IMG/VR virus record: IMGVR_UViG_3300025137_005045
DNA length: 64,000 nt
DNA from: a virus
Lineage: Duplodnaviria; Caudoviricetes
Strand: one strand, 5' to 3'
The translations under genes and the position numbers were made by a program. Under the pieces are notes generated by a model. That model searched no databases, was not told where the DNA came from, and saw only the letters and a list, made by a program, of their open reading frames with translations. Of the stretch, positions 4,958 to 46,035 are shown piece after piece (positions within the stretch are counted from its first letter, which is position 1; each line of letters begins with the position of its first letter).

Positions 4958-5348
4958 TATTACACTTATTTAAAAAATCAACTCCTTCCGTACTACGATA
5001 TTCTTGGCTGTAGTAGACCTGCGTAATCCCACTTTGATAAATCATTTTAGCACAACTCAAACAAGGCGAGTGCGTTATGAATATTGCTGAACCATCTCCG
5101 CTTTCACTTGACTTAGCCAGTTTAGCAATTGCATTTGACTCTGCGTGCAGTACTTCTGGTCGACTTTTATTATTCTCATCTTCGCATACGTTATCCCATC
5201 CACTGGGCATACCATTATATCCAATTGAAATAATACGATCGTTCTTAACTATTAAAGCACCAACGTTCAATCTTTTAGCAGTTGAACACTTTGCATAGAC
5301 ATGTGCCGCCCGCATGTGTGCTTGTTTATGTTTGTCTTTTATATTCAT
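4923..5348 (-). CDS. cd: dCMP deaminase
   Basis: Zn-dependent deaminase motifs HAE and PCxxC (HAESNAI...SPCLSCAK), VGALIVK, IGYNG. Confidence 0.93.
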   Translation of the reverse strand: MNIKDKHKQAHMRAAHVYAKCSTAKRLNVGALIVKNDRIISIGYNGMPSGWDNVCEDENNKSRPEVLHAESNAIAKLAKSSESGDGSAIFITHSPCLSCAKMIYQSGITQVYYSQEYRSTEGVDFLNKCNITVEQLTVEDI

Positions 5349-6832
5349 GAACAGACCTTAACTCCGTACTTTTTTTCAAAACGATCAGCATCTGCACGAT
5401 CGTTTACCATAGGTTCACCTTTGATATTAAGGCTGGTATTTAGTAGCATTGGACAACCTGTAAGTACAAACCATTTTTCTAATAGTTGGCGTACTCCGCT
5501 TTTGCAGTCTGCTGGAACTGTTTGTACACGACTAGTTCCGTCCGTGTGTACAACTGCTGGATAAGCATCAGGATTATTTAATCTTGCTACTACTTGCATG
5601 TATGGACTTGTTGTAAATCCTTCCGGCATTGTAAAATAGTCATTGACATACTCTTCTAATATCACAGGAGCAAATGGTCTAAACTTTTGTCTACGTTTAA
5701 TTTCATTTACCAGATCTTTTATTTCTGGACCTCTTGGGTCTGCCAGTAAACTTCTATTACCTAATGCTCTAGGACCAAACTCAGCTCGTCCCGATGCTAC
5801 ACCTACAATTTTTTTAGTCAGTAGTTCGTCTAGTAAAGCATTTACAGGATAGTCGCCGGATATATCAGTTCCTAAGAATGGATGTTGCCAGTTAATTTTT
5901 TTACCGTATGTTAAAGCCGCGGCGCCTAAGCTCGAACCTGCGTCGCCAGGATTAGGCATAATCCAAGTGTTGTCAAAGTATGCACCTAGATGTTCGTTAG
6001 CCGAGCAGTTAAGAGCAACTCCTCCCATATAAACTAAATTTTTACTCCAGTTTAGTCTTGTGGCTTTATCCATTACACTGTGCAATAACACTTCCAACGT
6101 GTATTGTGCTGAAGCGGCAATATTAAATTCTGATAAATCTGTTGCCCAATCTAAACATCCTGCGTGTAAATTATTTCTAAATCGAATTTGTTCTCTGTCT
6201 GATACAAACTCATCAAATACATTATAATCTGGTACACCATATGCGGCCATACCCATTAAAATATATTCATCTTCATTGGGTTTTAATCCCACACGTTGTG
6301 TCATTGCAGAATAAAATAATCCCATTGAGTGAGGATACCCTTGTCTCCATAATTTTTTATATCGTGCATTACCTTTATGATCGTAATCAGCACCCCATAT
6401 AGTTATAGTATCAAACTCTCCAATGGAATCAATGACAACAACCGTTGCTCTATCGTAAGGACTAGTTTGGAATCCTGCGGCCGCATGTGACAAGTGATGT
6501 GGATATGATTTTGTTCGGTAACCTGTTCCTATTAATTTTTTAGCTTTCGGTGGTATTGCTTTGGATAGTACCTGTCTGGTAAACATTCGGTCCCAGTCAA
6601 GACCAGCACCTTGATACAGTTGTCTTAACTGTTTGAGTAGAGGTTTTTCATAGTAGGCTATATCAGAAATACAACCTATATTTGCATCTGCAAAAATTTC
6701 TTCATTGAGAATATGATCGTTTTTTTGTTTGCTATAACGTTCGCTGTGTCCAGCAAAAGTTATGTTACCATCAAGGTCGATGATTGTAATTGATGCGTCG
6801 TGAAATCCTTCAGATATTCCTAAGTAACTCAT
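5345..6832 (-). CDS. Carbamoyltransferase (NodU/CmcH/TobZ family)
   Basis: HDAS, HHLSHAA, GGVALN, EFGPRALGNRS, KRRQKFRPFAP, DGTSRVQTV, LLNTSLN. Confidence 0.93.
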   Translation of the reverse strand: MSYLGISEGFHDASITIIDLDGNITFAGHSERYSKQKNDHILNEEIFADANIGCISDIAYYEKPLLKQLRQLYQGAGLDWDRMFTRQVLSKAIPPKAKKLIGTGYRTKSYPHHLSHAAAGFQTSPYDRATVVVIDSIGEFDTITIWGADYDHKGNARYKKLWRQGYPHSMGLFYSAMTQRVGLKPNEDEYILMGMAAYGVPDYNVFDEFVSDREQIRFRNNLHAGCLDWATDLSEFNIAASAQYTLEVLLHSVMDKATRLNWSKNLVYMGGVALNCSANEHLGAYFDNTWIMPNPGDAGSSLGAAALTYGKKINWQHPFLGTDISGDYPVNALLDELLTKKIVGVASGRAEFGPRALGNRSLLADPRGPEIKDLVNEIKRRQKFRPFAPVILEEYVNDYFTMPEGFTTSPYMQVVARLNNPDAYPAVVHTDGTSRVQTVPADCKSGVRQLLEKWFVLTGCPMLLNTSLNIKGEPMVNDRADADRFEKKYGVKVCS

Positions 6833-6930
6833 TTATATATAAATGGATCTCGTTTTTTAAGCTCTTTCAGCTTTTTTCTATTTTCTATTCTTTTTACGAT
6901 ACGATCGTATATTTTTTTAAACCATGACAT
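6829..6930 (-). CDS. 33-aa basic micropeptide, copy 1 (MSWFKKIYDRIVKRIENRKKLKELKKRDPFIYK)
   Basis: Hand-translated. SD TAAGGTGA 8 nt upstream; stop overlaps the carbamoyltransferase ATG; paralog at 7642..7758. Below the ORF-track cutoff. Confidence 0.8.
   Translation of the reverse strand: MSWFKKIYDRIVKRIENRKKLKELKKRDPFIYK
6836..6881. repeat. 46-bp perfect direct repeat, copy 1
   Basis: TATATAAATGGATCTCGTTTTTTAAGCTCTTTCAGCTTTTTTCTAT, identical at 7664-7709. Confidence 0.95.
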
Positions 6931-6933
6931 ATT

Positions 6934-7641
6934 TTAATTCACCTTATGTTCATTGATAAATGTATAAATTGCTAGGCCACCATTTGAACTGTTAAACATC
7001 GATAAAAAGTTTACCAGATAATTGCCCCAACTTGGTTGGACAGATTGAAATTTTAAATCACTACACATGTTTAGCACTGTCTGTTTGGTAAAACTTAATT
7101 CAAAGGGATTATTTTCTTGATCTTCAAACAATGTAGAACTATTGTAATTAATTTTTTTAATATGCTTTAATATCTTGCCCATTGGATTATATACTGCAAT
7201 CAATAATGTACCGCCTGGCTTTATTAATGATTTTAATTTGTCCAAGGCTTCTTGATATTGTGGGATATGATGTAGCACTCCACAGCATATAACAACATCA
7301 TATTTTTTGCCTAGTTTAACTTTAAGAAAGTCTTCTTTAATCCATTTAATATTTTTTATATTATTTTCTTTAGACATTTTCCTTGCATAGTCTATACTAT
7401 TGCTAAAGTCAACTCCAGTAAATTTACTTTTTGGATATAAGTTAGCGAATGTATTTGATATTAATCCTGTACCGCACCCAATATCCAATACTTCTATGTT
7501 GTTTGTTACAACATTATTAATTTCCTTAAGGTATATATTAATGTCTACACCTTCCTGCTTATAGAATTCTAGGTCATCACTGTCATACCTGCCAGGAAAA
7601 TGCAGATCACTGTAGAAATTCTTTATTTTTTCTGTATCCAT
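6934..7641 (-). CDS. Class I SAM-dependent methyltransferase
   Basis: Motif I VLDIGCGTG, then VDFS, EDFL, YDVVICCGVLHH, LIKPGG. Confidence 0.9.
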   Translation of the reverse strand: MDTEKIKNFYSDLHFPGRYDSDDLEFYKQEGVDINIYLKEINNVVTNNIEVLDIGCGTGLISNTFANLYPKSKFTGVDFSNSIDYARKMSKENNIKNIKWIKEDFLKVKLGKKYDVVICCGVLHHIPQYQEALDKLKSLIKPGGTLLIAVYNPMGKILKHIKKINYNSSTLFEDQENNPFELSFTKQTVLNMCSDLKFQSVQPSWGNYLVNFLSMFNSSNGGLAIYTFINEHKVN

Positions 7642-7758
7642 TTAACTTTTTTTACTTCTTGGGTATATAAATGGATCTCGTTTTTTAAGCTCTTTCAGCT
7701 TTTTTCTATATCGTATTTCTAATTTAATACGATTATATATATTTTTAAACCAATTCAT
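7642..7758 (-). CDS. 38-aa basic micropeptide, copy 2 (MNWFKNIYNRIKLEIRYRKKLKELKKRDPFIYPRSKKS)
   Basis: Hand-translated. SD GGAG 8 nt upstream; stop abuts the methyltransferase ATG. Confidence 0.8.
   Translation of the reverse strand: MNWFKNIYNRIKLEIRYRKKLKELKKRDPFIYPRSKKS
7664..7709. repeat. 46-bp perfect direct repeat, copy 2
   Basis: Identical to 6836-6881. Confidence 0.95.
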
Positions 7759-8854
7759 TTTTATCACTCCAACAATAATTAAATGTGTTACTAACACCGT
7801 CTACTTCTATACTGTATATATCTAGGTGTGTTTCGAGTTGGCGCCAAATATCAAACATATCAACTGTACCAAAACTTCTTTTTAAATCAACTTTTCCTAT
7901 AGGTAAATGTCCAAGACTAAGTTTTGGATCTCGTGGATCCAAGCCGTGTTTAAGTAACCAATTTTCAAACTCCAATTGTTCTCTATTATGCCAAGGATAG
8001 TTATTAGATCTGGTAACATCGTTAGCCCACTCTACATCAAACTCACCTGAGTAATACTGTAAATGTGTAATTTCTTCACAGGTTGCTTCATCTAGGTCAG
8101 GTGCACCTTCATCACGGAAAACTTCCATTAATGTCTTACCTATTTGTGTCCAGTGCATATAAACATACCCAATCCGCCTATCATATCCGTTAGATATAAA
8201 TCCTTGTCTATGTTCCTCAGACAGATGGTATCTTTTACGCTTATCAAATGTAGTAATTTGACTTGGTCGTATCCACTCCGGTGCAACACGAGCCTTGCGT
8301 TGACTTAATATTAAACTTTCAAGTTCGTGACAACTATGATTTAACGATCCAATTGCCTGTTTAATAGAAGTGGGTGCTAATTGATGATACTGACTTGGTT
8401 TTTCTATAGTACCCTGTAAGCGTTCAAAATGATTATGTAATTTATTTAATATAGCATGCTTTGGCTGTAGCCCAATATACAGATGTCTGTTATTAATCTC
8501 TGATGATGTTACTGTTCCTTCTATCTGATAGGTGGCTGGAAATCTTACAGTGTTTGGATGAAACCATTCTTCTATTAAATAGTCAGTGAGACCTAATTTA
8601 GTAAAATCATATCTATTAATAATTTCTATATTTTTGTTTAATTCATCGCATAGATATTCTAGTGTTCTTGGACTGTTTGGAAAGCCTAAAAAACAAAACT
8701 CTTTCTGAAGTTTTAAATTATTAGATAATGTTTCTTTAAGTGCTATTATCCAATCTTTAGCCAACTGAGTATCATTGGGAACAATATAATAATCTAGTGT
8801 ATCCTCTTTATCCAATGGATTACGCAGTGTTACTTTAACTTCCAATTGACTCAT
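7745..8854 (-). CDS. Hypothetical protein, possibly metal-binding
   Basis: Long ORF in the coupled operon. Likely start ATG 8854 (MSQLEV; track gives 8881). His/Glu motifs LHNHFE, NHSCHELE, YMHW. Confidence 0.7.
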   Translation of the reverse strand: MSQLEVKVTLRNPLDKEDTLDYYIVPNDTQLAKDWIIALKETLSNNLKLQKEFCFLGFPNSPRTLEYLCDELNKNIEIINRYDFTKLGLTDYLIEEWFHPNTVRFPATYQIEGTVTSSEINNRHLYIGLQPKHAILNKLHNHFERLQGTIEKPSQYHQLAPTSIKQAIGSLNHSCHELESLILSQRKARVAPEWIRPSQITTFDKRKRYHLSEEHRQGFISNGYDRRIGYVYMHWTQIGKTLMEVFRDEGAPDLDEATCEEITHLQYYSGEFDVEWANDVTRSNNYPWHNREQLEFENWLLKHGLDPRDPKLSLGHLPIGKVDLKRSFGTVDMFDIWRQLETHLDIYSIEVDGVSNTFNYCWSDKNELV

Positions 8855-10142
8855 ACCAGTGTAATGCCTCCGGGCGTTCACTTAAAATGTCAGCAAGGGT
8901 GTATTTGTCCTTACGTATAAGTTCTAATTGTAACACACGACGCTTACCTTTTGCAAGACTTTCTTGGTAAGTATCTGGCCATTGTTCTTCAAAAGTTGGC
9001 CGTGTTTTAAGTTGCACCAATATGTCACGCATAGCACCGTTGCTAGTAACAATTAGTTCATCTAACCAAGGATGCAATATTGATTTTGGTAATGCTAGCG
9101 GACTAAAAATAATATCAGGAGTAAAACTAAAGATTACTTTGGCTAGTATGTCTACACCTTTTTCTTCTGCGAGCGTTTGGATGTTTTCGACTTCGAAGAG
9201 TCCTGGGAGCGTGAGCGTGAAGTCGATACGTAACTGGCGGCTATGTATTTTACTCTCAACTCCCTGATCGAAGTTTTCAAGCCACGAACCATACTTGAGA
9301 CCTGTCCTAATGTACTCTCCAATTTTTCCTGTTCCGTCAAGCGACGCACAGATTTGCCAGTCCCGTAACCTAGAAAGTATATCCCGATACAAATTAATAC
9401 CGCGATAATCACATCTGCTAAGATTTGTATTATATCTTGCGTAAACATTTTTACCGTCTCCTAATTCAACTATCCGTTTCATGTACTTCCAATGTTGCTC
9501 GTACATTAACGGTTCCCCTCCTACCCAATAAACCTCTTCTATGCGGTGGTCTTCCACCGCTTGGGCAAATTCCTGCTCTACTACAGAGTCCTGGAACTTC
9601 TCAATTTCTTTCTTAACATCGCGTTTCATCCAGTTGTTTTTAGGATTTGACCAGTTAATCATATTGTGCTTGCGTTGTTCTGTTTCCCATGCACTTGATA
9701 ACATATCGCCACATGTGCGGCATTTGAAGTTACATAAATTACTAAAACGATAATCCCAACTTACAGGTTCCATCGTTGTATGGCCTGTTTCGTCTGTTGT
9801 TTCCCATAACTTTGTATAGTATTTACTACTGAATAGTCTATCAAAATATGTACGGTAAACATCAGTATTCAACAGCTTATCGTTGCATACGGCACATTCC
9901 GCTAAGGTTTCTCCAGCCATCATGCGTTTACGAACTGATTTCATATGGTCACTGTTCCAGTGATCGTGCAATGTGATTGGCTGATATTCTCCCGTACCTT
10001 CTTTGGTATCTATATACTGTTCAAACGATTGTGCATCCTCACGACTAGCACAGCACATACGTCTTTCAGTCTGTGGCGATAGATAAGTATGTGTCCACGG
10101 AGCCATACACAATGTTTCTGGTTTGTTTTTAGGTTCTTTCAT
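8835..10142 (-). CDS. Radical SAM protein with N-terminal SPASM/twitch-like Cys domain
   Basis: CxxxCxxC (CNFKCRTC), GGEP, YNTN, ASLDG; N-terminal CMAPW..MCCAS..CAVC. Confidence 0.9.
   Translation of the reverse strand: MKEPKNKPETLCMAPWTHTYLSPQTERRMCCASREDAQSFEQYIDTKEGTGEYQPITLHDHWNSDHMKSVRKRMMAGETLAECAVCNDKLLNTDVYRTYFDRLFSSKYYTKLWETTDETGHTTMEPVSWDYRFSNLCNFKCRTCGDMLSSAWETEQRKHNMINWSNPKNNWMKRDVKKEIEKFQDSVVEQEFAQAVEDHRIEEVYWVGGEPLMYEQHWKYMKRIVELGDGKNVYARYNTNLSRCDYRGINLYRDILSRLRDWQICASLDGTGKIGEYIRTGLKYGSWLENFDQGVESKIHSRQLRIDFTLTLPGLFEVENIQTLAEEKGVDILAKVIFSFTPDIIFSPLALPKSILHPWLDELIVTSNGAMRDILVQLKTRPTFEEQWPDTYQESLAKGKRRVLQLELIRKDKYTLADILSERPEALHWYESIGS
9152..9448 (-). CDS. Candidate overprinted gene (+1 frame in radical SAM): N-terminal TM helix, coiled-coil-like middle, Ser/Lys/Arg-rich tail
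   Basis: SD AGGAG 9 nt before ATG; host gene uses rare codons (ACG, CTC, TCG, CGG, CGC) across the overlap. Confidence 0.55.
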   Translation of the reverse strand: MFTQDIIQILADVIIAVLICIGIYFLGYGTGKSVRRLTEQEKLESTLGQVSSMVRGLKTSIRELRVKYIAASYVSTSRSRSQDSSKSKTSKRSQKKKV

Positions 10143-11202
10143 ACCACTCTTTTATTTTCTTAAGCTGTAAAATATTATTTTTTACACAATTTTTATTAAA
10201 CTCACCACTAATAATCATCTCTAAATTATATTCTGCACTGTTGCGAGCTTGAGTAAAGTCATCAATATTTTTCAGTTCATCTAATAATTTAAATAAGTTT
10301 TCTAGTCTTGTAAAATCTTCTTGTATGCTGTCATACCCTAGATCAAAACCATAATCAAACTTCATTCCTAATTTTGTTAAAAATGATAATGTATTAGCTT
10401 GTCCTACAGGTAGAAATGGTTGTTTAGCTATTAAGGGTTTCCACGTTTTCTCTGTCAGATAAGGAGTAGTATATATACCTTTGTTGTTAAACTCTGTATT
10501 GTATATACTTTCATTTGTTAGATTAAATTCACAATTTAGATAGGCTGGGTTGCTCCAATGACCGTTGTTTATTGGCAAATTTATATCTTCGTCGAATGAA
10601 TCTATAGTGATTATTCCTATATTATTAAATGCTGGACTAGAAAGATATTTTTCGACTATGTCTGAAATATAATATCCCTCCTGTTTCCAATAATGTTGTT
10701 CCTCACTATCAGACCAAGCATGCCAACTTAATAAACTATCCGGATATTCGTTTATTAGGTATGCTGTGATAGCCGACTTATGAAATTCTTCTCTAAAAGA
10801 TAGAGAGCTGAATAGACGAGTCTTTGGGTGTTGTTTCTGACAATGTCCATACATCTCATTCATATGTTCGAGCTGATATCCATATGATATCCATTGAGCA
10901 TACGTTACATTTTCGGGCCATATGTTGCTTGGACTACCATCAGACAATAGTAAAAAATTTATGTCAGAATATTTCTTGAAGAATTCTAACAAGTCAAAAT
11001 AATTATAATACTCAGTGTGAAAACTAATGATTACATTTTTATAGTGTTGTGGAACTTTAACTGTTGTAATATTTTGAATATTAAGTAAAAAATAAACAGA
11101 GTCTAAATCAAGTTCAATTAACGGTTGATATAATGTATGTTTAATTATTTCTTTTGTTCCAATTATGTTTTGAGGAATGTAATCATCAATTTTCATACCC
11201 AA
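10129..11202 (-). CDS. Hypothetical protein with LTEKTWKP motif, glycosyltransferase-like
   Basis: FNLTNES...YLTEKTWKPLIAKQPF...DLGYD; paralog of 3779..4957. Confidence 0.5.
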   Translation of the reverse strand: MGMKIDDYIPQNIIGTKEIIKHTLYQPLIELDLDSVYFLLNIQNITTVKVPQHYKNVIISFHTEYYNYFDLLEFFKKYSDINFLLLSDGSPSNIWPENVTYAQWISYGYQLEHMNEMYGHCQKQHPKTRLFSSLSFREEFHKSAITAYLINEYPDSLLSWHAWSDSEEQHYWKQEGYYISDIVEKYLSSPAFNNIGIITIDSFDEDINLPINNGHWSNPAYLNCEFNLTNESIYNTEFNNKGIYTTPYLTEKTWKPLIAKQPFLPVGQANTLSFLTKLGMKFDYGFDLGYDSIQEDFTRLENLFKLLDELKNIDDFTQARNSAEYNLEMIISGEFNKNCVKNNILQLKKIKEWYERT

Positions 11203-12769
11203 TGGCCTCTGCTAGTTCAGGATGGTGGTCCCATAAGTTTTCTTTTCTAATGCCGTCTTTGTCTCTTACCTTTCTTAATAGTTCACTACCGTCTGAGCTT
11301 TTGCCTTGTTCCATAAAACTTATACAACTGTCAAACTGCTTTCTATGATAGCTATTAACGTCACTGTCATTGAGACGTTGCTCTGCTAAACGTTTAGCCT
11401 GAGTAGGCAGTGATCTAATACTAACAGCTTCTTCATCGTGTAACATATTCCAATACACATTATCAAATCCTTGTTTGTCAATCCAATGAGCTAGTCCTTC
11501 TAGATACATAACGTTAAACACGTTGATTGTAGAGCAAACCTGTAGAACTATGTTACCAAGTTCTTGTTTAAGCTCTCTAAACTTTCTTATATTATCATTA
11601 ACTTCTGACCATATAGCATTCTTACGCTGATATTCAAAACGTTCATCAACATCATCTATACTGAATGCTATTTCAACTAACTTAAAATGTTTCCATATAT
11701 GTTTAGCATCAGGAAAATTTGTTCCGTTAGTGTTGTAGTGTATTTCAACATTTCCAGCAACACCCAATTCAATTAGCTTCTCTAAGAAATCAAAATGCTC
11801 TCTTATTAAGAATGGCTCTCCACCTGTAAATTCTAAATATTTTATTTCGTTACTAAGTTCGTGAAGCCTGTCCCAAAAGTGAGATTGTTCTCGCGGCCAT
11901 CTTCCCAATTGAATAGTTTTATAAGCAAAACTATTTTTCTTATCTTGTTTAGGTAATTCTTCTGTTGCTATTTGACTAGATGAGTAACTGCCACATATCC
12001 GACATTTTAGATTACATATATTACCGACTTTTAGGTCAAACATCATCAATTCCTTGCGTTCTTCTGTCCAGGTTTGATTGGCAATACCTAGATGCTTTAA
12101 TCTGTCTAGGGTGTTTAATCTCTTGCTGATCCCGTCACTGTCTTCTACTCTCCAACATTTATCACAAGTATCAGGCTTTCCTCCAGCTAAAAAATCTTTT
12201 CTAAGTTGCTTCATTGAATGGGCATTTAGTACCTCATCTAATGTATTTTTCGTAACTGTTAGCTTGTTGCCTTTTTCATCTTTAATATGTTCTTCTGCTA
12301 AACAACACACAGCATGGGAACCGTTTGGTTGTATTTCTAATGCTACCCATGGCAAAATACAGAAACTATCGGTTGGTAAATTTAGACTTTCTATTCTAGA
12401 CTCTAAATCCGAATGGTTTATTGTTTGTGTTTCTTGTTGAATAATTTTATACTGATTGCCGTCAATTAATACAGAAGTAAAGGGTGTAGGATCATAACTT
12501 AACTCACGTGTTACTCTTTCTATTTCCTGAACAATATTTTTATCTTCAGTTACTACCATAACAAAAAAGTTTGATATATCTAAACTATTAATAATATTCT
12601 GTAAGTCATTTAGTACACTAATATCAGGCATTGATACAATAATACGCTCATTGTTCTCATATTTGTCTTTTTGTATAGCTTGTAACTGTTTAACTAGATC
12701 TTTAGAGCTGTCGATACTGTGTGCTGTGTACTGTAAAGATAAAACCTTAATTATTGATTCGTATTTCAT
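11186..12769 (-). CDS. Radical SAM protein with N-terminal extension and SPASM/twitch-like domain
   Basis: CNLKCRIC, FTGGEP, YNTN, FSID; FCILPW..VCCLA..CDKCW; about 140-aa extra N-terminus. Confidence 0.9.
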   Translation of the reverse strand: MKYESIIKVLSLQYTAHSIDSSKDLVKQLQAIQKDKYENNERIIVSMPDISVLNDLQNIINSLDISNFFVMVVTEDKNIVQEIERVTRELSYDPTPFTSVLIDGNQYKIIQQETQTINHSDLESRIESLNLPTDSFCILPWVALEIQPNGSHAVCCLAEEHIKDEKGNKLTVTKNTLDEVLNAHSMKQLRKDFLAGGKPDTCDKCWRVEDSDGISKRLNTLDRLKHLGIANQTWTEERKELMMFDLKVGNICNLKCRICGSYSSSQIATEELPKQDKKNSFAYKTIQLGRWPREQSHFWDRLHELSNEIKYLEFTGGEPFLIREHFDFLEKLIELGVAGNVEIHYNTNGTNFPDAKHIWKHFKLVEIAFSIDDVDERFEYQRKNAIWSEVNDNIRKFRELKQELGNIVLQVCSTINVFNVMYLEGLAHWIDKQGFDNVYWNMLHDEEAVSIRSLPTQAKRLAEQRLNDSDVNSYHRKQFDSCISFMEQGKSSDGSELLRKVRDKDGIRKENLWDHHPELAEAIGYEN

Positions 12770-14021
12770 TTAACTCCGGTATTGCTTCTGATATGTTTTC
12801 GTTTCTAATTTTATCTAACTCTTGCATACGTTCCCAAAACTTAGGAAGTTGATCTTGATTGTTGCCTTCTAAAAAGTTAAGTGCTGATTCAAATCCCACA
12901 GTTGCTCTATTCAATTTATCTAACGGACGTAACCATTCTAAGTGTTCTTCAAACTTAGCCTTAATTTTATCTTTATATTCTTGTGGTGCAATATCAATAC
13001 GCAACCATAATGGGTCTTGTAATACGTTAACGTTTAAGTCTTGAGGTTTAATGTATCCTTTGTTAACCCACTCACGATGGAAATCAGGTAAGTGCAACGC
13101 ATTTTGTATTGATAGTGTAGGACTAATATAGAAGTCAACATCAGGACATATTTCCATCATTAGACGTCTGTTTTCTTCTATCTCTGCCCACTTAGTACCT
13201 TTTCTAATATACTCAGCACGTGGACCCATTGCGTCAAGACTAGCACCCACTGCAACACTATCAAACTTCTTCCAATAGTCAAACACTAACCGGTCTTTAA
13301 GTTTTGTTTTAGAGAAGTTTGTGTTGTATACTAATCGTACATCAAAGCGATTACGCTTTTCTAGTTCTTCTAGGATAACATAATGCTCATCCATCATTAA
13401 AGGCTCACCGCCAGCGAAATATATTTGTTCTACGTAATCTAAATGTTCGTACAACTGTTCCATAATATCTGTTTCGTGTCGACCTGCCCAGAACAGAGCC
13501 TTGTTCTGTTTGTTATGGCCTTCACCGGTTAACACCTTTTGATCTTTATACCAACTTGAACTAAAGATATGTCCACATGAACGACATGATAAATTACATA
13601 AGTTACTAAAGCGTATGTCCCAATATGTCATTTCAAAAGGAGGATCTATGTCTGTGCCTTTTTTAATATTGTGTCCGTGATGTTTGTTAGCACTCTTGCG
13701 TCCTGAAAAGAAACCAGCATCCTCTTGTTCATAACATCTAGTACACGCTGAATTCTCACGTTCATTTAACATGTCTTCACGTAGTTGTTTCATCTTGGCG
13801 CCTGACCATATTTCTTTCATTGGTTGCTGTTGACAGTTACCAACTTTCTCAGGCATTTCAGCATGACAACAAGGATAAGCATCACCAGTTGGGTATGCGT
13901 GTAAATGTATCCAAGGATACATACAAAATGTTTTTGATTCTGTTAATAAAAACTTTTCACGATCGTTCAATTGATCTAGACTAATCTTTACTGGTTCACT
14001 TGAATTGTAATTATAAGCCAT
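12747..14021 (-). CDS. Radical SAM protein with N-terminal SPASM/twitch-like domain
   Basis: CNLSCRSC, FAGGEP, YNTN, ASLD; FCMYPW..PCCHA..CTRCY. Confidence 0.9.
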   Translation of the reverse strand: MAYNYNSSEPVKISLDQLNDREKFLLTESKTFCMYPWIHLHAYPTGDAYPCCHAEMPEKVGNCQQQPMKEIWSGAKMKQLREDMLNERENSACTRCYEQEDAGFFSGRKSANKHHGHNIKKGTDIDPPFEMTYWDIRFSNLCNLSCRSCGHIFSSSWYKDQKVLTGEGHNKQNKALFWAGRHETDIMEQLYEHLDYVEQIYFAGGEPLMMDEHYVILEELEKRNRFDVRLVYNTNFSKTKLKDRLVFDYWKKFDSVAVGASLDAMGPRAEYIRKGTKWAEIEENRRLMMEICPDVDFYISPTLSIQNALHLPDFHREWVNKGYIKPQDLNVNVLQDPLWLRIDIAPQEYKDKIKAKFEEHLEWLRPLDKLNRATVGFESALNFLEGNNQDQLPKFWERMQELDKIRNENISEAIPELNEIRINN

Positions 14022-15366
14022 TATACCAATCCTCTAATTCAGGAAACGTTTCAGTAAAGTTCTTTCCCCTACGTTCGTCATACTGTGTATAAAATTGTTT
14101 AAAGTCATTTAGTAGTTTAGGCATTTCAAATGATTCTGAATGCGGCCTTTCTACTATATTTAAGTAATCAACTAATCTTTCTATATGATTTATTTCAAAC
14201 TCGTGTAGTCTATCACCATAGTTTGCTTTAAATATGTTTAATCTATTTGCTTGTGCTTGTCTAAACTGCTTATCCAATACCAATGCTGATTGAAAGCTAG
14301 GAAAGCGTAGAATATTTAGTGTAAAATTAATTGCGTCTTTTCCGTATTCTTGTTTAAGATAGACTATCTGTTTCAACAAATAAGGTAGTCTAATCAAGCA
14401 CAGAGCGTTCACTGTACACATTACATGTAATCCACGTAGCTTTTTACTATCTAACAAATAACGAACGTTTGCAAGCCATTGACCGTAATCTAATCCATCA
14501 CGTATATACTCGGCATGATTATAAGTTGCTTCGTTTGATGTGTATATGTCTAGTTCAACATCCTGTGCGGCTTCCAACAATCTATCTATTTTCTTTTGAT
14601 CTAATGCTAGATTACTGTTAACAGCTATACGTGTTTTTGACTTTCCTCTATTAGTTTTAAACCAATCAAACAGTTGCCATGTATAACCTGACATCAAAGG
14701 CTCGCCACCTGTTATCCTTAATTCAGTTAAGGTCTTGTGAAGATCGGACTCCCACCACTTGAAGAATGCCTCAACATAAGGATTATCATCACGGATAGTA
14801 AAAAGCTGACTGCTATCGTGACTATGAGTAAAGTGATTGCGGCCGTCACTAACCAACTTGGTATAAGCACCATTTTGCTTAATGTCCCTAGCCCAACTAC
14901 TGCTAAAAGCGGGATTGCAATAAGTACAAGCCAACTGGCAAGTCCTATCAAAAGCAATTTCCAAAGTTCTAAGGTTAACATCTTGTGTCCAAGGCTTAGT
15001 GTGTGCTTCATTTAATTCCTCATCTGTGTATATTCTAGTTTTATCTACACGGTCTGATATTTTGTCAGTACCCATGTCCTCAATTTTCCAACAGTACTCA
15101 CAGCCTTTAGGTCTCTCACCTACCTGCATCTGTCTACGCTGTTCTTTCTTTTCAACAGTATTATGTAACGCACTTGGATTTGTTTTAATTAGTTCACGAT
15201 CAATCTGATGCGGTAAGGGATGATGACAACTGGTAGTTTGTCCGCTACCTAGCCATATGGTAGCATTATACCATTTAGCACCACAGAAGCTATCAGATTT
15301 AATGTCGATAACTCTACGTTTATATGTTAAGTCAGATTCATTAGGCTTTTTTGGCATGTTGTTCAC
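14011..15366 (-). CDS. Radical SAM protein with N-terminal SPASM/twitch-like domain
   Basis: CQLACTYC, ITGGEP, VNSN; FCGAKW..SCHHP..CEYCW. Confidence 0.9.
   Translation of the reverse strand: MNNMPKKPNESDLTYKRRVIDIKSDSFCGAKWYNATIWLGSGQTTSCHHPLPHQIDRELIKTNPSALHNTVEKKEQRRQMQVGERPKGCEYCWKIEDMGTDKISDRVDKTRIYTDEELNEAHTKPWTQDVNLRTLEIAFDRTCQLACTYCNPAFSSSWARDIKQNGAYTKLVSDGRNHFTHSHDSSQLFTIRDDNPYVEAFFKWWESDLHKTLTELRITGGEPLMSGYTWQLFDWFKTNRGKSKTRIAVNSNLALDQKKIDRLLEAAQDVELDIYTSNEATYNHAEYIRDGLDYGQWLANVRYLLDSKKLRGLHVMCTVNALCLIRLPYLLKQIVYLKQEYGKDAINFTLNILRFPSFQSALVLDKQFRQAQANRLNIFKANYGDRLHEFEINHIERLVDYLNIVERPHSESFEMPKLLNDFKQFYTQYDERRGKNFTETFPELEDWYNGL
14727..15011 (-). CDS. Candidate overprinted 94-aa multi-pass membrane protein (holin-like), +1 frame in radical SAM
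   Basis: SD GAGG 6 nt before ATG; about 60 nearly uninterrupted hydrophobic residues; only 8 of 94 host codons in the overlap end in A, far fewer than in the flanks. Confidence 0.6.
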   Translation of the reverse strand: MKHTLSLGHKMLTLELWKLLLIGLASWLVLIAIPLLAVVGLGTLSKMVLIPSWLVTAAITLLIVTIAVSFLLSVMIILMLRHSSSGGSPIFTRP

Positions 15367-16771
15367 ACTCCTTCCACCATGTTTCCATCTCAGGAAATAT
15401 CTTTAGAAAGTTTGTACCTCTTCTCTTATCATGTTCTGTAAAAAATTTATAAAAGTCTGCTTTCTGTTGGGCAAGGTATTTAGTGTCTAGTTTTTGACCG
15501 TTACGCATCCAAGCGATATCTCTATCAAGCCGTTGCATTTCATAATCTTTAAATCCTTTAAAACGTGTTTCTTCTGTTTCTCTCCACTTCAACATCCAAG
15601 CCCATAATAGTTCAAGTTGATCACAATAGCTTTCTGGAAGTATCTGCATGCTTTGCCATTCGGGTGTACGCAATAGAGGAGTATCAAACCATACACGTTG
15701 GTATGTATTTGAGTATACATGTCTAAGTCCGTTAATACCTGCTAGTATACTGCCAAATGATGTTACATTTAGATTATTCATTGTGATAATAAATGTTATG
15801 CTTGAACGTTCTGGTACTTCTGTCAAGAATTGATTAACACGTTCCCATAACAACTCAAAGTTCAATCCATCACGTATGTATTCTGCTTTATCTCCAAAAG
15901 CATCAACTGACACATACTGCATGAAATGTTCTACATTGTCATCTCGACATATCATCTTGACATAATCTAAATACTTGACCCATAGTTTTTCACTTACTGA
16001 AAAGTTTGATGTTGTTGATAGATGTAAGTCAGATTTAGGATTGGCTAACACATGATCAAATACCTTATACGTATTCTTATCCATCATTGGTTCGCCACCT
16101 GTCATACGGAAGTGTTTAAGCTCAGGATATAAGTCAGGCCACCATTCCCAAAATGCTTCTACATAAGGATTATGTTCTCTAAAAGGTATAGGCTTACGAC
16201 TGCCTTGAAAGTATTTAGGATCATTATGAGGAGTTGATGTAGGCCACGCACCATGTTTGTCAGTTTCTTTTTCCCAAGCAGTTGAATACTGTGGTGAACA
16301 ATAACTACAGCGTAGATTACAGTTATGATTAAAGTTTACTTCTACATAGCTAGGTATAACATCTTGGTCCCAAGGTGCATCTACTATTTCTTTAAAACTT
16401 TCAGCGGCCCATGGCTCGCCTGAACGATAATGCCTATCACTTAGCTGACCATTATCTTCTGCATTCCAACAGTATGAACACTCATCAGGACGCTTTCCCT
16501 CTAACATCTGCTTACGTGCTTGTTTCTTTTCAGCAGTGTTGTGTAACGCACCTGGATGAAATGTCAATGGCTTAACATCTATATCATGTAAGGGAGGATG
16601 ATAGCATGAGTTAGTTTTACCTGTTGTAAGGTGTAAGCTGACCTGTTTCCATTTAGCTAGGCACATGCTAGGACTTACTGAGTCTAGTTGAGCTTTGGCC
16701 AACTCTGCATCACTTAAGAACTTTGACTTAAAGTCTACTCCTGTTTCATCACCTTTGTTTTGTTTGTTCAT
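15341..16771 (-). CDS. Radical SAM protein with N-terminal SPASM/twitch-like domain
   Basis: CNLRCSYC, MTGGEP, TTSN, VSVD; MCLAKW..SCYHP..CSYCW. Confidence 0.9.
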   Translation of the reverse strand: MNKQNKGDETGVDFKSKFLSDAELAKAQLDSVSPSMCLAKWKQVSLHLTTGKTNSCYHPPLHDIDVKPLTFHPGALHNTAEKKQARKQMLEGKRPDECSYCWNAEDNGQLSDRHYRSGEPWAAESFKEIVDAPWDQDVIPSYVEVNFNHNCNLRCSYCSPQYSTAWEKETDKHGAWPTSTPHNDPKYFQGSRKPIPFREHNPYVEAFWEWWPDLYPELKHFRMTGGEPMMDKNTYKVFDHVLANPKSDLHLSTTSNFSVSEKLWVKYLDYVKMICRDDNVEHFMQYVSVDAFGDKAEYIRDGLNFELLWERVNQFLTEVPERSSITFIITMNNLNVTSFGSILAGINGLRHVYSNTYQRVWFDTPLLRTPEWQSMQILPESYCDQLELLWAWMLKWRETEETRFKGFKDYEMQRLDRDIAWMRNGQKLDTKYLAQQKADFYKFFTEHDKRRGTNFLKIFPEMETWWKECEQHAKKA

Positions 16772-45729: not shown

Positions 45730-46035
45730 TTAGAAGCCTAATGCTGTTTTAAGAGTCGAAATCTTTGGTAAGAATATTTTTGTTCCAACCTTAAAATCAT
45801 AAATTGGATCCACTATTGAGTTTGGATTACGCTGTGAAAATACCCACCATAGCCCTGGATCGTCATATAAATCTTGTGCCAGTAGGTCTGGTCGATGCTG
45901 ATATGTAATTGTTACTGTAAACATCTGATCATCTACCTGTTTAGGAATTGGTCTATTCTGCATCACTCCAAGATAATTATCCTGAACCTGTGATGTGAAA
46001 TAAGGCGATGTTGATGCGTATTTTACTTTAGCCAT
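45730..46035 (-). CDS. gp53: Baseplate wedge subunit, gp53/LysM-like
   Basis: HRPDLLAQDLYDDPGLWWVF..N....DPIYDF..G..I.LP. Confidence 0.75.
   Translation of the reverse strand: MAKVKYASTSPYFTSQVQDNYLGVMQNRPIPKQVDDQMFTVTITYQHRPDLLAQDLYDDPGLWWVFSQRNPNSIVDPIYDFKVGTKIFLPKISTLKTALGF

Follow-up and report, generated by a model that had tools for sequence, protein, structure and literature searches.

The 64,000-nucleotide stretch of tailed-virus DNA analysed here (IMG/VR record IMGVR_UViG_3300025137_005045; Duplodnaviria, Caudoviricetes), hereafter the window, almost certainly carries a protein-coding gene hidden inside another gene. The hidden open reading frame (ORF), at 9152..9448, lies wholly inside a radical SAM gene (8835..10142) in a different frame. 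We read it as a de novo overprinted gene for a single-pass membrane protein that may serve as an accessory lysis factor, and to this statement as a whole we give a probability of about 0.38. A sequence-only reading of the window had described a 98-codon ORF in the +1 frame of this gene behind a strong ribosome-binding site with a 9-nt spacer, encoding a membrane segment, an amphipathic middle and a basic tail, and each of these parts was recovered in this copy. The features are as follows.

9152..9448, minus strand: overprinted gene, 98 amino acids (aa), ATG start, in the +1 frame of the radical SAM gene over host codons 232-330; recognized by the ORF list, stop depletion, stop-specific codon avoidance and reduced four-fold-site divergence.
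9458..9464, minus strand: Shine-Dalgarno (SD) sequence TTAGGAG with a 9-nt spacer to the ATG, built of host Leu-Gly-Asp codons.
9359..9424, minus strand: single transmembrane helix, residues about 9-30, recognized by hydropathy, depletion of charged or polar residues and a structure model, and predicted N-out/C-in from the placing of Lys and Arg.
9356..9370, minus strand: G27xxxG31 motif closing the membrane helix, with G27 selected and G31 forced by a host Trp codon.
9245..9322, minus strand: leucine-zipper heptads at residues 43, 47, 50, 54, 57, 61, 64 and 68, with conserved E48/Q49.
9155..9235, minus strand: variable C-terminal tail, rich in Ser/Lys/Arg here, containing Cys in most relatives and absent in forms of 72-74 aa.
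8835..10142, minus strand: host gene, an N-terminal-twitch radical SAM protein of 435 aa in the ancestral frame (NCBIfam NF033640; Pfam Radical_SAM/SPASM).

Homologues of the host gene were gathered from viral and metagenome contigs, and for 60 of them with less than 90% nucleotide identity the number of +1 stops was compared with the expectation from synonymous resampling of host codons 232-321. It turned out that 52 stops were observed against 365 expected and that the +1 frame was fully open in 42 homologues against 0.03 expected; outside the overlap interval, and in other frames, there was no comparable deficit. NTA before a purine stands at 7% inside the overlap versus 41% outside, and NTG before A at 5% versus 25%, whereas NTG before other bases is unchanged (24% versus 27%). 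Because NTA and NTG drop only where a +1 stop would form, the avoidance is specific to stop-forming contexts. At Ala, Thr, Pro and Gly four-fold sites, which are unable to create a +1 stop, divergence over 47 disjoint pairs was 0.09 in the helix, 0.15 in the zipper and 0.19 in the tail, compared with 0.35 and 0.29 outside the overlap.

The 209 homologues divide into 150 with at least 68 open codons, 24 with 50-65 and 35 in which the frame is closed, and an AGGAG or AGGGG SD is kept in 98, 14 and 1 of them, respectively. AGGAG alone occurs in 75 of 131 members of the nested family, where 14.7 would be expected. The nested ATG is weak evidence for a gene because the host protein nearly forces it, and it is present in 32 of the 35 closed copies. 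The comparisons indicate that purifying selection acts on the nested protein, beyond keeping its frame open, and that its own translation start site is under selection. RNA contigs from relatives about 88% identical span the overlap in three marine metatranscriptomes of one study, these contigs being unstranded and carrying no start information. No internal late promoter and no excess of sigma-70 sites was found ahead of the nested gene.

If there were no gene here, codon bias, RNA structure or the import of a GC-rich patch would have to have left the frame open incidentally. That the start ATG, G31, G56 and Lys/Arg32 are all host-forced would suit such an account, as would the 42% of stop-free synonymous simulations that yield a helix-like segment anyway. 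The account is nevertheless exceedingly improbable: the avoidance is confined to stop-forming contexts in one frame and one interval, the family has no GC patch, and SD retention, heptad periodicity and the selection of G27 all vanish in closed orthologues. The sequence-only reading had expected to fail if homologues kept a patch of raised G+C at third codon positions (GC3) but lost the open frame or the SD. The opposite was seen: homologues retain the open frame and the SD and show no GC patch, which upholds the proposal that a membrane protein with a coiled coil is overprinted here behind a ribosome-binding site of its own.

The codon usage of the overlap was largely as described before, with host codons that are rare in this genome spread across the overlap (ACG 3, CTC 5, TCG 2, CGG 2, CGC 2 and AGG 2), and the host gene outside the overlap has no CTC and no AGG. 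A bias to G/C-ending codons upstream of the nested gene, which had also been reported, is present in this copy (GC3 at synonymous sites 23 of 52 versus 67 of 244, p 0.02, in a region picked after the fact) but not in relatives: in 13 of them at 84-92% identity, GC3 is 0.31-0.38 in the patch and 0.30-0.39 upstream of it. Across the family the overlap itself is not a GC3 patch, with a mean of 0.38 versus 0.43 and 0.34 on the flanks. An antisense ORF at 9425..9616, which the earlier reading had noted as open in this stretch, does not hold as a feature. Only 20 of 209 homologues keep it open, the mean being 2.0 stops, and among the 13 closest it is closed in 9. The +2 frame is not depleted of stops and holds no third-frame gene, which agrees with the earlier failure to find an outer-membrane spanin subunit (o-spanin) there. 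The residual GC3 anomaly requires neither a third gene nor an imported patch.

What selection keeps in the nested protein was judged against a null model in which the host protein is kept, codons vary synonymously and +1 stops are forbidden. The maximum 19-residue hydropathy is 2.39 versus 1.48 in the null, and residues 13-30 hold 0.44 charged or polar residues versus 2.1. G27 is found in 76% of members versus 11% in the null; host position 258 switches between Arg (AGG) and Gly (GGG), both rare codons and both giving the nested G27. The helix is otherwise variable in sequence, with only its hydrophobicity and G27 kept, and G31, Lys/Arg32 and G56, being forced by the host frame, carry no information on selection. 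In the zipper, 6.7 of 8 heptad positions are hydrophobic versus 3.7 in the null and non-heptad hydrophobics number 4.2 versus 7.0; Q49 is present in 89% versus 36%, and E48 is likewise kept.

Lys and Arg average 0.11 in residues 1-10 versus 2.3 in residues 29-45. About 90% of members have neither in the first ten residues, and 95% of the 131 have more after the helix than before it. By the positive-inside rule the topology is quite probably N-out/C-in, and it counts against this that Lys/Arg32, one part of the signal, is host-forced. The AlphaFold model, of modest confidence, has a helix at residues 3-31 and a long second helix (mean predicted local distance difference test score 62; 73 for the core), and a homodimer prediction for residues 1-70 scored 0.02 and gave no usable complex. 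Residues 32-70 average 5.0 Lys/Arg versus 4.2 Asp/Glu, and this copy has 18 versus 5 over residues 32-98. TatA and PspB were considered as look-alikes and dropped; the suggestive Gly/Lys hinge is forced by the host Trp262/Gln263 codons.

The tail bears on the earlier suggestion of a membrane-tethered nucleic-acid-binding protein acting through a Ser/Arg/Lys tail. Such a tail, with 7-9 Lys/Arg after residue 72 in this copy and in the 84-92% relatives, and four-fold sites that are somewhat constrained (0.19), is what the suggestion would predict. However, the basic tail is restricted to this sub-clade. The median tail Lys/Arg count in full-length members is 5, only 20% have at least 8, and the count is near the null (4.0 versus 3.6). 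Instead, 62% of full-length members have a Cys-containing tail, two of the three tail Cys being no commoner than in the null, and tailless forms of 72-74 aa occur at several separate places on the tree, the tail having been lost in several independent lineages. We consider that the nucleic-acid-binding idea fails and could hardly be right; judging from the relatives, the tail beyond residue 72 is dispensable.

The helix-only forms of 50-65 aa (L059, L061, L064, L073, L143 and others) keep the SD and the helix (hydropathy 2.43), without zipper and G27. The membrane helix is the minimal selected unit, and the short form may be either a precursor or a remnant. A tree was built from host residues outside the overlap by a quick method with weak support, which does not fix the order of the closed, short and long states. 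Its deepest branches are closed, the middle branches mix the three states, and a 53-row group with this phage is wholly open (support 83 by the Shimodaira-Hasegawa-like approximate likelihood ratio test). All ten orthologues below 65% host identity have the nested frame closed, and the paralogous radical SAM genes at 11186..12769, 12747..14021 and 15341..16771 show no such stop depletion. Because the distant orthologues, the deepest branches and the three paralogues are closed, the origin is de novo, and the simplest reading is that the nested gene arose once, in one clade of aquatic T4-like jumbo phages of 320-375 kb, and was then lost several times. The host frame, a member of NF033640 (284.9 bits to N_Twi_rSAM, cut-off 170), is older and more widespread than the nested one.

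Outside the overlap the protein family has no detectable relatives and, as far as sequence and fold searches reach, is new. A word-based search with the single nested protein gave no matches. A full-library search found 7 nested proteins in databases and a profile search 9, and the seven with readable DNA are nested copies, called where a short contig, an N-gap or a long-read frameshift had broken the host gene, with no proof of a free-standing copy among them. There is no second copy in five complete relatives, and cultured phages have host-gene homologues at 24% identity only. No Pfam family was matched by more than 3 of 50 members. The BFVD fold search gave nothing, the Atlas shape search generic long helices only, the PDB sequence search spurious ubiquitin matches only, and the ESM Atlas nothing above 0.78 for the window's own nested protein. 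Literature searches found no description of this nested gene, nor of any nested gene for NF033640. It is also new that such a gene should lie within a metabolic enzyme, in a jumbo phage whose lysis cassette is complete, and that several of them should be clustered in a single operon.

Two contigs deserve separate mention. In L161:242-544 (an ENA contig of 849 bases) what is left of the host gene is broken by three stops, a frameshift and the loss of 12 bases, yet the nested frame (P0006) is open; chance openness is plausible, and the copy is possibly a freed one or a decaying fragment. L432, a 4-kb contig filed in a Lishizhenia metagenome-assembled genome, carries a host gene that is 69% identical and in which the nested frame is open, and is probably a phage fragment binned with a bacterium.

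As for the role, ribosomes would start at the internal SD of the operon mRNA, and the product would cross the inner membrane once, by the helix that GxxxG closes. Its short acidic N-terminus would lie outside and its leucine zipper of four heptads in the cytoplasm, and self-association into an oligomer is probable. The protein would be an accessory lysis factor that the phage can do without, assisting the holin encoded elsewhere or setting its timing at the inner-membrane step, and would resemble LambdaSo Lcc6, LysF1b and Mu gp25 by convergence and not by descent. We propose this role because three tested phage proteins of such size and topology all act in lysis. Besides, where membrane genes that originated in the +1 frame of an older phage gene have been tested, they have usually proved to be lysis genes (PMC7693330). 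When one family member was compared with the ESM Atlas, the closest clusters bearing a name (0.83-0.85) were those of DUF2730, to which Mu gp25 belongs; this is a lead only.

The lysis cassette was examined in five complete relatives (G001-G005). In G001 it lies at L178:9383-12179 (189.4-192.2 kb), where a lipobox scan revealed an 88-aa o-spanin overlapping a 159-aa inner-membrane spanin subunit (i-spanin), between the endolysin and a holin-like gene. Generally, the cassettes (L178, L193-L196) contain a chitinase-type endolysin, an i-spanin with two N-terminal hydrophobic segments, the overlapping o-spanin and a holin-like gene (phrog_3427) with a long low-complexity tail. The extra genes encode either two proteins, one lipoprotein-like (133 aa) and one helical (80 aa), or a single membrane protein of 180 aa. 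PF00959 is absent from the five complete genomes, other muralytic families with a signal-arrest-release (SAR) segment not having been searched.

Several observations weigh against the accessory lysis role. The cassette of G001 is 76 kb from the radical SAM gene, the same cassette occurs in the four other complete genomes with the nested frame long or short, and i-spanin homologues are present in 3 of 5 genomes with the nested frame closed. On inspection the cassette endolysins have no N-terminal SAR segment. The nested gene sits in a sugar-tailoring operon, and it is not essential because 35 of the 209 orthologues lack it and 24 more are helix-only. None of the lysis families matches it in sequence: PF10805 gives no hit at E<=1 in the five complete relatives and is not among the 25 Pfam families listed for 50 members, and the Atlas likeness to DUF2730 is below 0.9, with 154 shared features versus the 170 typical of true members. 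Late expression of the operon is plausible and only partly supported, by a terminator-like run and a late-like ATAAGTA/ATAAATA word at the operon start in this genome and in 14 of 38 relatives. As for a holin in its own right, single-helix holin-like proteins of the BhlA/BlyA type exist; here the neighbours are radical SAM and sugar-tailoring genes with no adjacent endolysin, and PHROG holin matches (E 0.01-0.05) came from only 2 of 50 and 2 of 131 members.

The sequence-only reading had offered an i-spanin-like protein as one of two roles. Such a protein would be a second inner-membrane spanin subunit, its o-spanin being encoded elsewhere. The outline agrees, with a single N-terminal membrane helix followed by a coiled coil; many relatives have Cys in their tails, and weak Rz-like PHROG matches were obtained for up to 11 of 131 members (best E 0.0009). 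However, phrog_739 matches 14 of 14 control genomes, so that the match is generic, and the predicted charge order is the reverse of that in i-spanins, with positive charge after the helix. A lipobox ORF was found neither in the operon of the window nor, at the loci scanned, on the strand of the genes, the +2 frame again offers no embedded partner by its stop content, and a canonical overlapping i-spanin/o-spanin pair adjoins the endolysin in G001-G005. The soluble part can be as short as about 40 residues, and the Cys are largely as frequent as the null predicts. With the opposite topology, no partner, a separate cassette in relatives and a non-specific match, an i-spanin is very unlikely. Two other lipoprotein candidates were seen in G001: a 54-aa Cys-rich one with a good SD at 45813..45977 (+) and a 271-aa one, CsgG-like by eye, at 106181..106996 (+).

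A role in the membrane but outside lysis timing has to be weighed more seriously, and we regard it as possible though unlikely that the protein acts on a host membrane protein or process, by superinfection exclusion, by blocking a membrane-bound defence effector or by diverting a lipid carrier. The model here is phiX174 E, which is likewise overprinted in a +1 frame and inhibits MraY by way of a single N-out helix, its basic tail being dispensable. The helix as minimal selected unit, kept with the SD in 14 of 24 forms of 50-65 aa, fits this, and repeated loss would fit a host-dependent benefit. Against it, exclusion genes are usually early, whereas the operon follows the tail genes, often with the late-like promoter word, and the helix is variable save for hydrophobicity and G27, unlike that of a specific inhibitor. 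Precedents also exist among single-gene lysis proteins (Sgls) (PMC7693330). It is a little harder to credit that the protein is an anchor or scaffold for the sugar-tailoring enzymes, with the zipper binding a radical SAM enzyme or a glycosyltransferase and holding the pathway at the membrane. Among those scanned, the operon's enzymes lack a membrane family match, while up to four membrane ORFs are hidden in the same operon, the tail-side genes that were tested are not depleted in this way, and the conserved polar E48/Q49 could be a binding patch. On the other hand, the enzymes predate the hidden gene and stay unbroken in lineages that lack it, each hidden gene comes and goes on its own, and the tail-side absence is weak, with few homologues. 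The accessory lysis factor is the reading that we rank first.

In the operon, which lies behind the tail genes, overlapping genes follow one another and encode radical SAM enzymes, a methyltransferase and a carbamoyltransferase; the main genes, among those scanned, encode enzymes without a membrane family match. The second gene hidden in the operon is the following.

14727..15011, minus strand: sibling overprinted gene in the radical SAM gene 14011..15366 of the same operon, 94 aa, hydrophobic, with about two membrane helices; recognized by +1 stop depletion.

The depletion at this sibling is strong over host codons of about 120-210 (100 homologues). Besides, the carbamoyltransferase gene (5345..6832, minus strand) has two hydrophobic +1 ORFs over host codons of about 285-365 and 374-440 (window 5512..5977). 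Stops are depleted in them over 79 homologues, and about half of the relatives have them open (e.g. L012, L014, L095, L305). Both are open in 63 of 153 and both closed in 52 of 153, and they are closed in this window's copy; the second starts with MKSN and has about two membrane segments. The earlier suggestion of a set of membrane genes hidden in the radical SAM array therefore holds, with the sibling and two more in relatives. The raw association between the nested gene and the other hidden ORFs is 98 of 117 versus 9 of 34. An obligate partnership with 14727..15011 or with the carbamoyltransferase ORFs was rejected, the independent pairs, too few in number, showing no co-loss; the hidden genes are gained and lost independently of one another. 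Tail-side genes showed no such depletion where tested, a weak negative with few homologues. It is conceivable, though we rather doubt it, that the operon is double-coded, with up to four de novo +1 membrane genes forming a module of their own, either for lysis control apart from the canonical cassette or as the missing membrane arm of the glycan pathway.

The window belongs to a T4-like jumbo phage with a gp55-type sigma factor, portal and major head genes, and its capsid is 64-68% identical to those of GAP32/CBB-type 350-kb phages. The complete relatives have genomes of 316-374 kb. YATAAATA is strongly under-represented across the window (3 found versus 16 expected), and ATAAATA stands just upstream of several structural genes, as for a late promoter. 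A 33-aa basic peptide ending in KKRDPFIYK (6829..6930, minus strand) precedes the carbamoyltransferase, and a near copy at about 7642..7760 on the same strand, abutting the methyltransferase stop, precedes the methyltransferase (6934..7641); this looks like a short duplication flanking an inserted gene.

Overprinting is textbook matter for tiny phage genomes and for Rz/Rz1, and in the present case a gene was born inside the catalytic barrel of a metabolic enzyme in a phage of 320-375 kb. Protein-level selection has kept it across more than 100 marine and freshwater lineages while gene callers miss it. Since closed copies, helix-only forms, forms with helix and zipper and full-length ones can be compared within one alignment, the course of de novo gene birth becomes measurable step by step. 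Seen with the three other membrane ORFs that the operon hides, the gene suggests that a layer of small membrane proteins is missing from the annotation of jumbo phages. If the double-coded module is true, it would have been assembled entirely by overprinting in a genome without a size limit.

Among known systems, phiX174 E lies inside D and is an overprinted single-gene lysis protein. Overprinted Sgls are already known from leviviruses, in the +1 frame of rep, and share with the nested gene a de novo membrane protein embedded in an older essential gene, an SD of its own, and gain and loss (PMC7693330). They differ in belonging to tiny genomes as the sole lysis gene; here the genome has 320-375 kb and a full lysis cassette, the host gene is metabolic, and up to four such genes share an operon. 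Embedded spanins are known as well, and lambda Rz/Rz1 resembles our case as an out-of-frame embedded gene in a tailed double-stranded DNA phage and in the outline of N-terminal helix plus coiled coil (PMC6139136). However, Rz is N-in/C-out and is itself the host of an embedded lipoprotein gene, whereas the nested protein has the opposite predicted topology, no lipoprotein partner and an unrelated enzyme as host.

A close likeness in plan is to the Mu gp25 releasin (DUF2730/PF10805), a lysis protein of 99 aa, N-out/C-in, which matches the 98 aa, the single N-terminal helix, the predicted topology and the cytoplasmic domain of about 70 residues (PMC9239132). DUF2730 genes are free-standing, at most 5 genes from the endolysin, occur in Mu-like transposable phages and encode an anionic cytoplasmic domain (PMC9239132), whereas the nested gene is overprinted, 76 kb from the endolysin in G001, neutral to basic, without a hidden Markov model match and in phages with a holin. 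LambdaSo Lcc6 of a Shewanella phage (65 aa, encoded away from the lysis cassette; 10.1101/2024.01.23.576932) and the mycobacteriophage LysF1b (124 aa, N-out/C-in, with a long cytoplasmic helix; PMC13056207) also have lysis roles, and are likewise small single-helix proteins with a cytoplasmic C-terminal part acting at the holin step. They are free-standing and needed for efficient lysis, whereas the nested gene is lost in many lineages, and no homology was tested or found. LysF1b works with a two-helix partner, and the operon here also hides a two-helix gene, 14727..15011, but without co-loss. If the proposed role is true, the nested protein would extend the class, recognized only lately, of single-helix N-out/C-in lysis helpers represented by releasin, Lcc6 and LysF1b, and would indicate that this class can arise from scratch.

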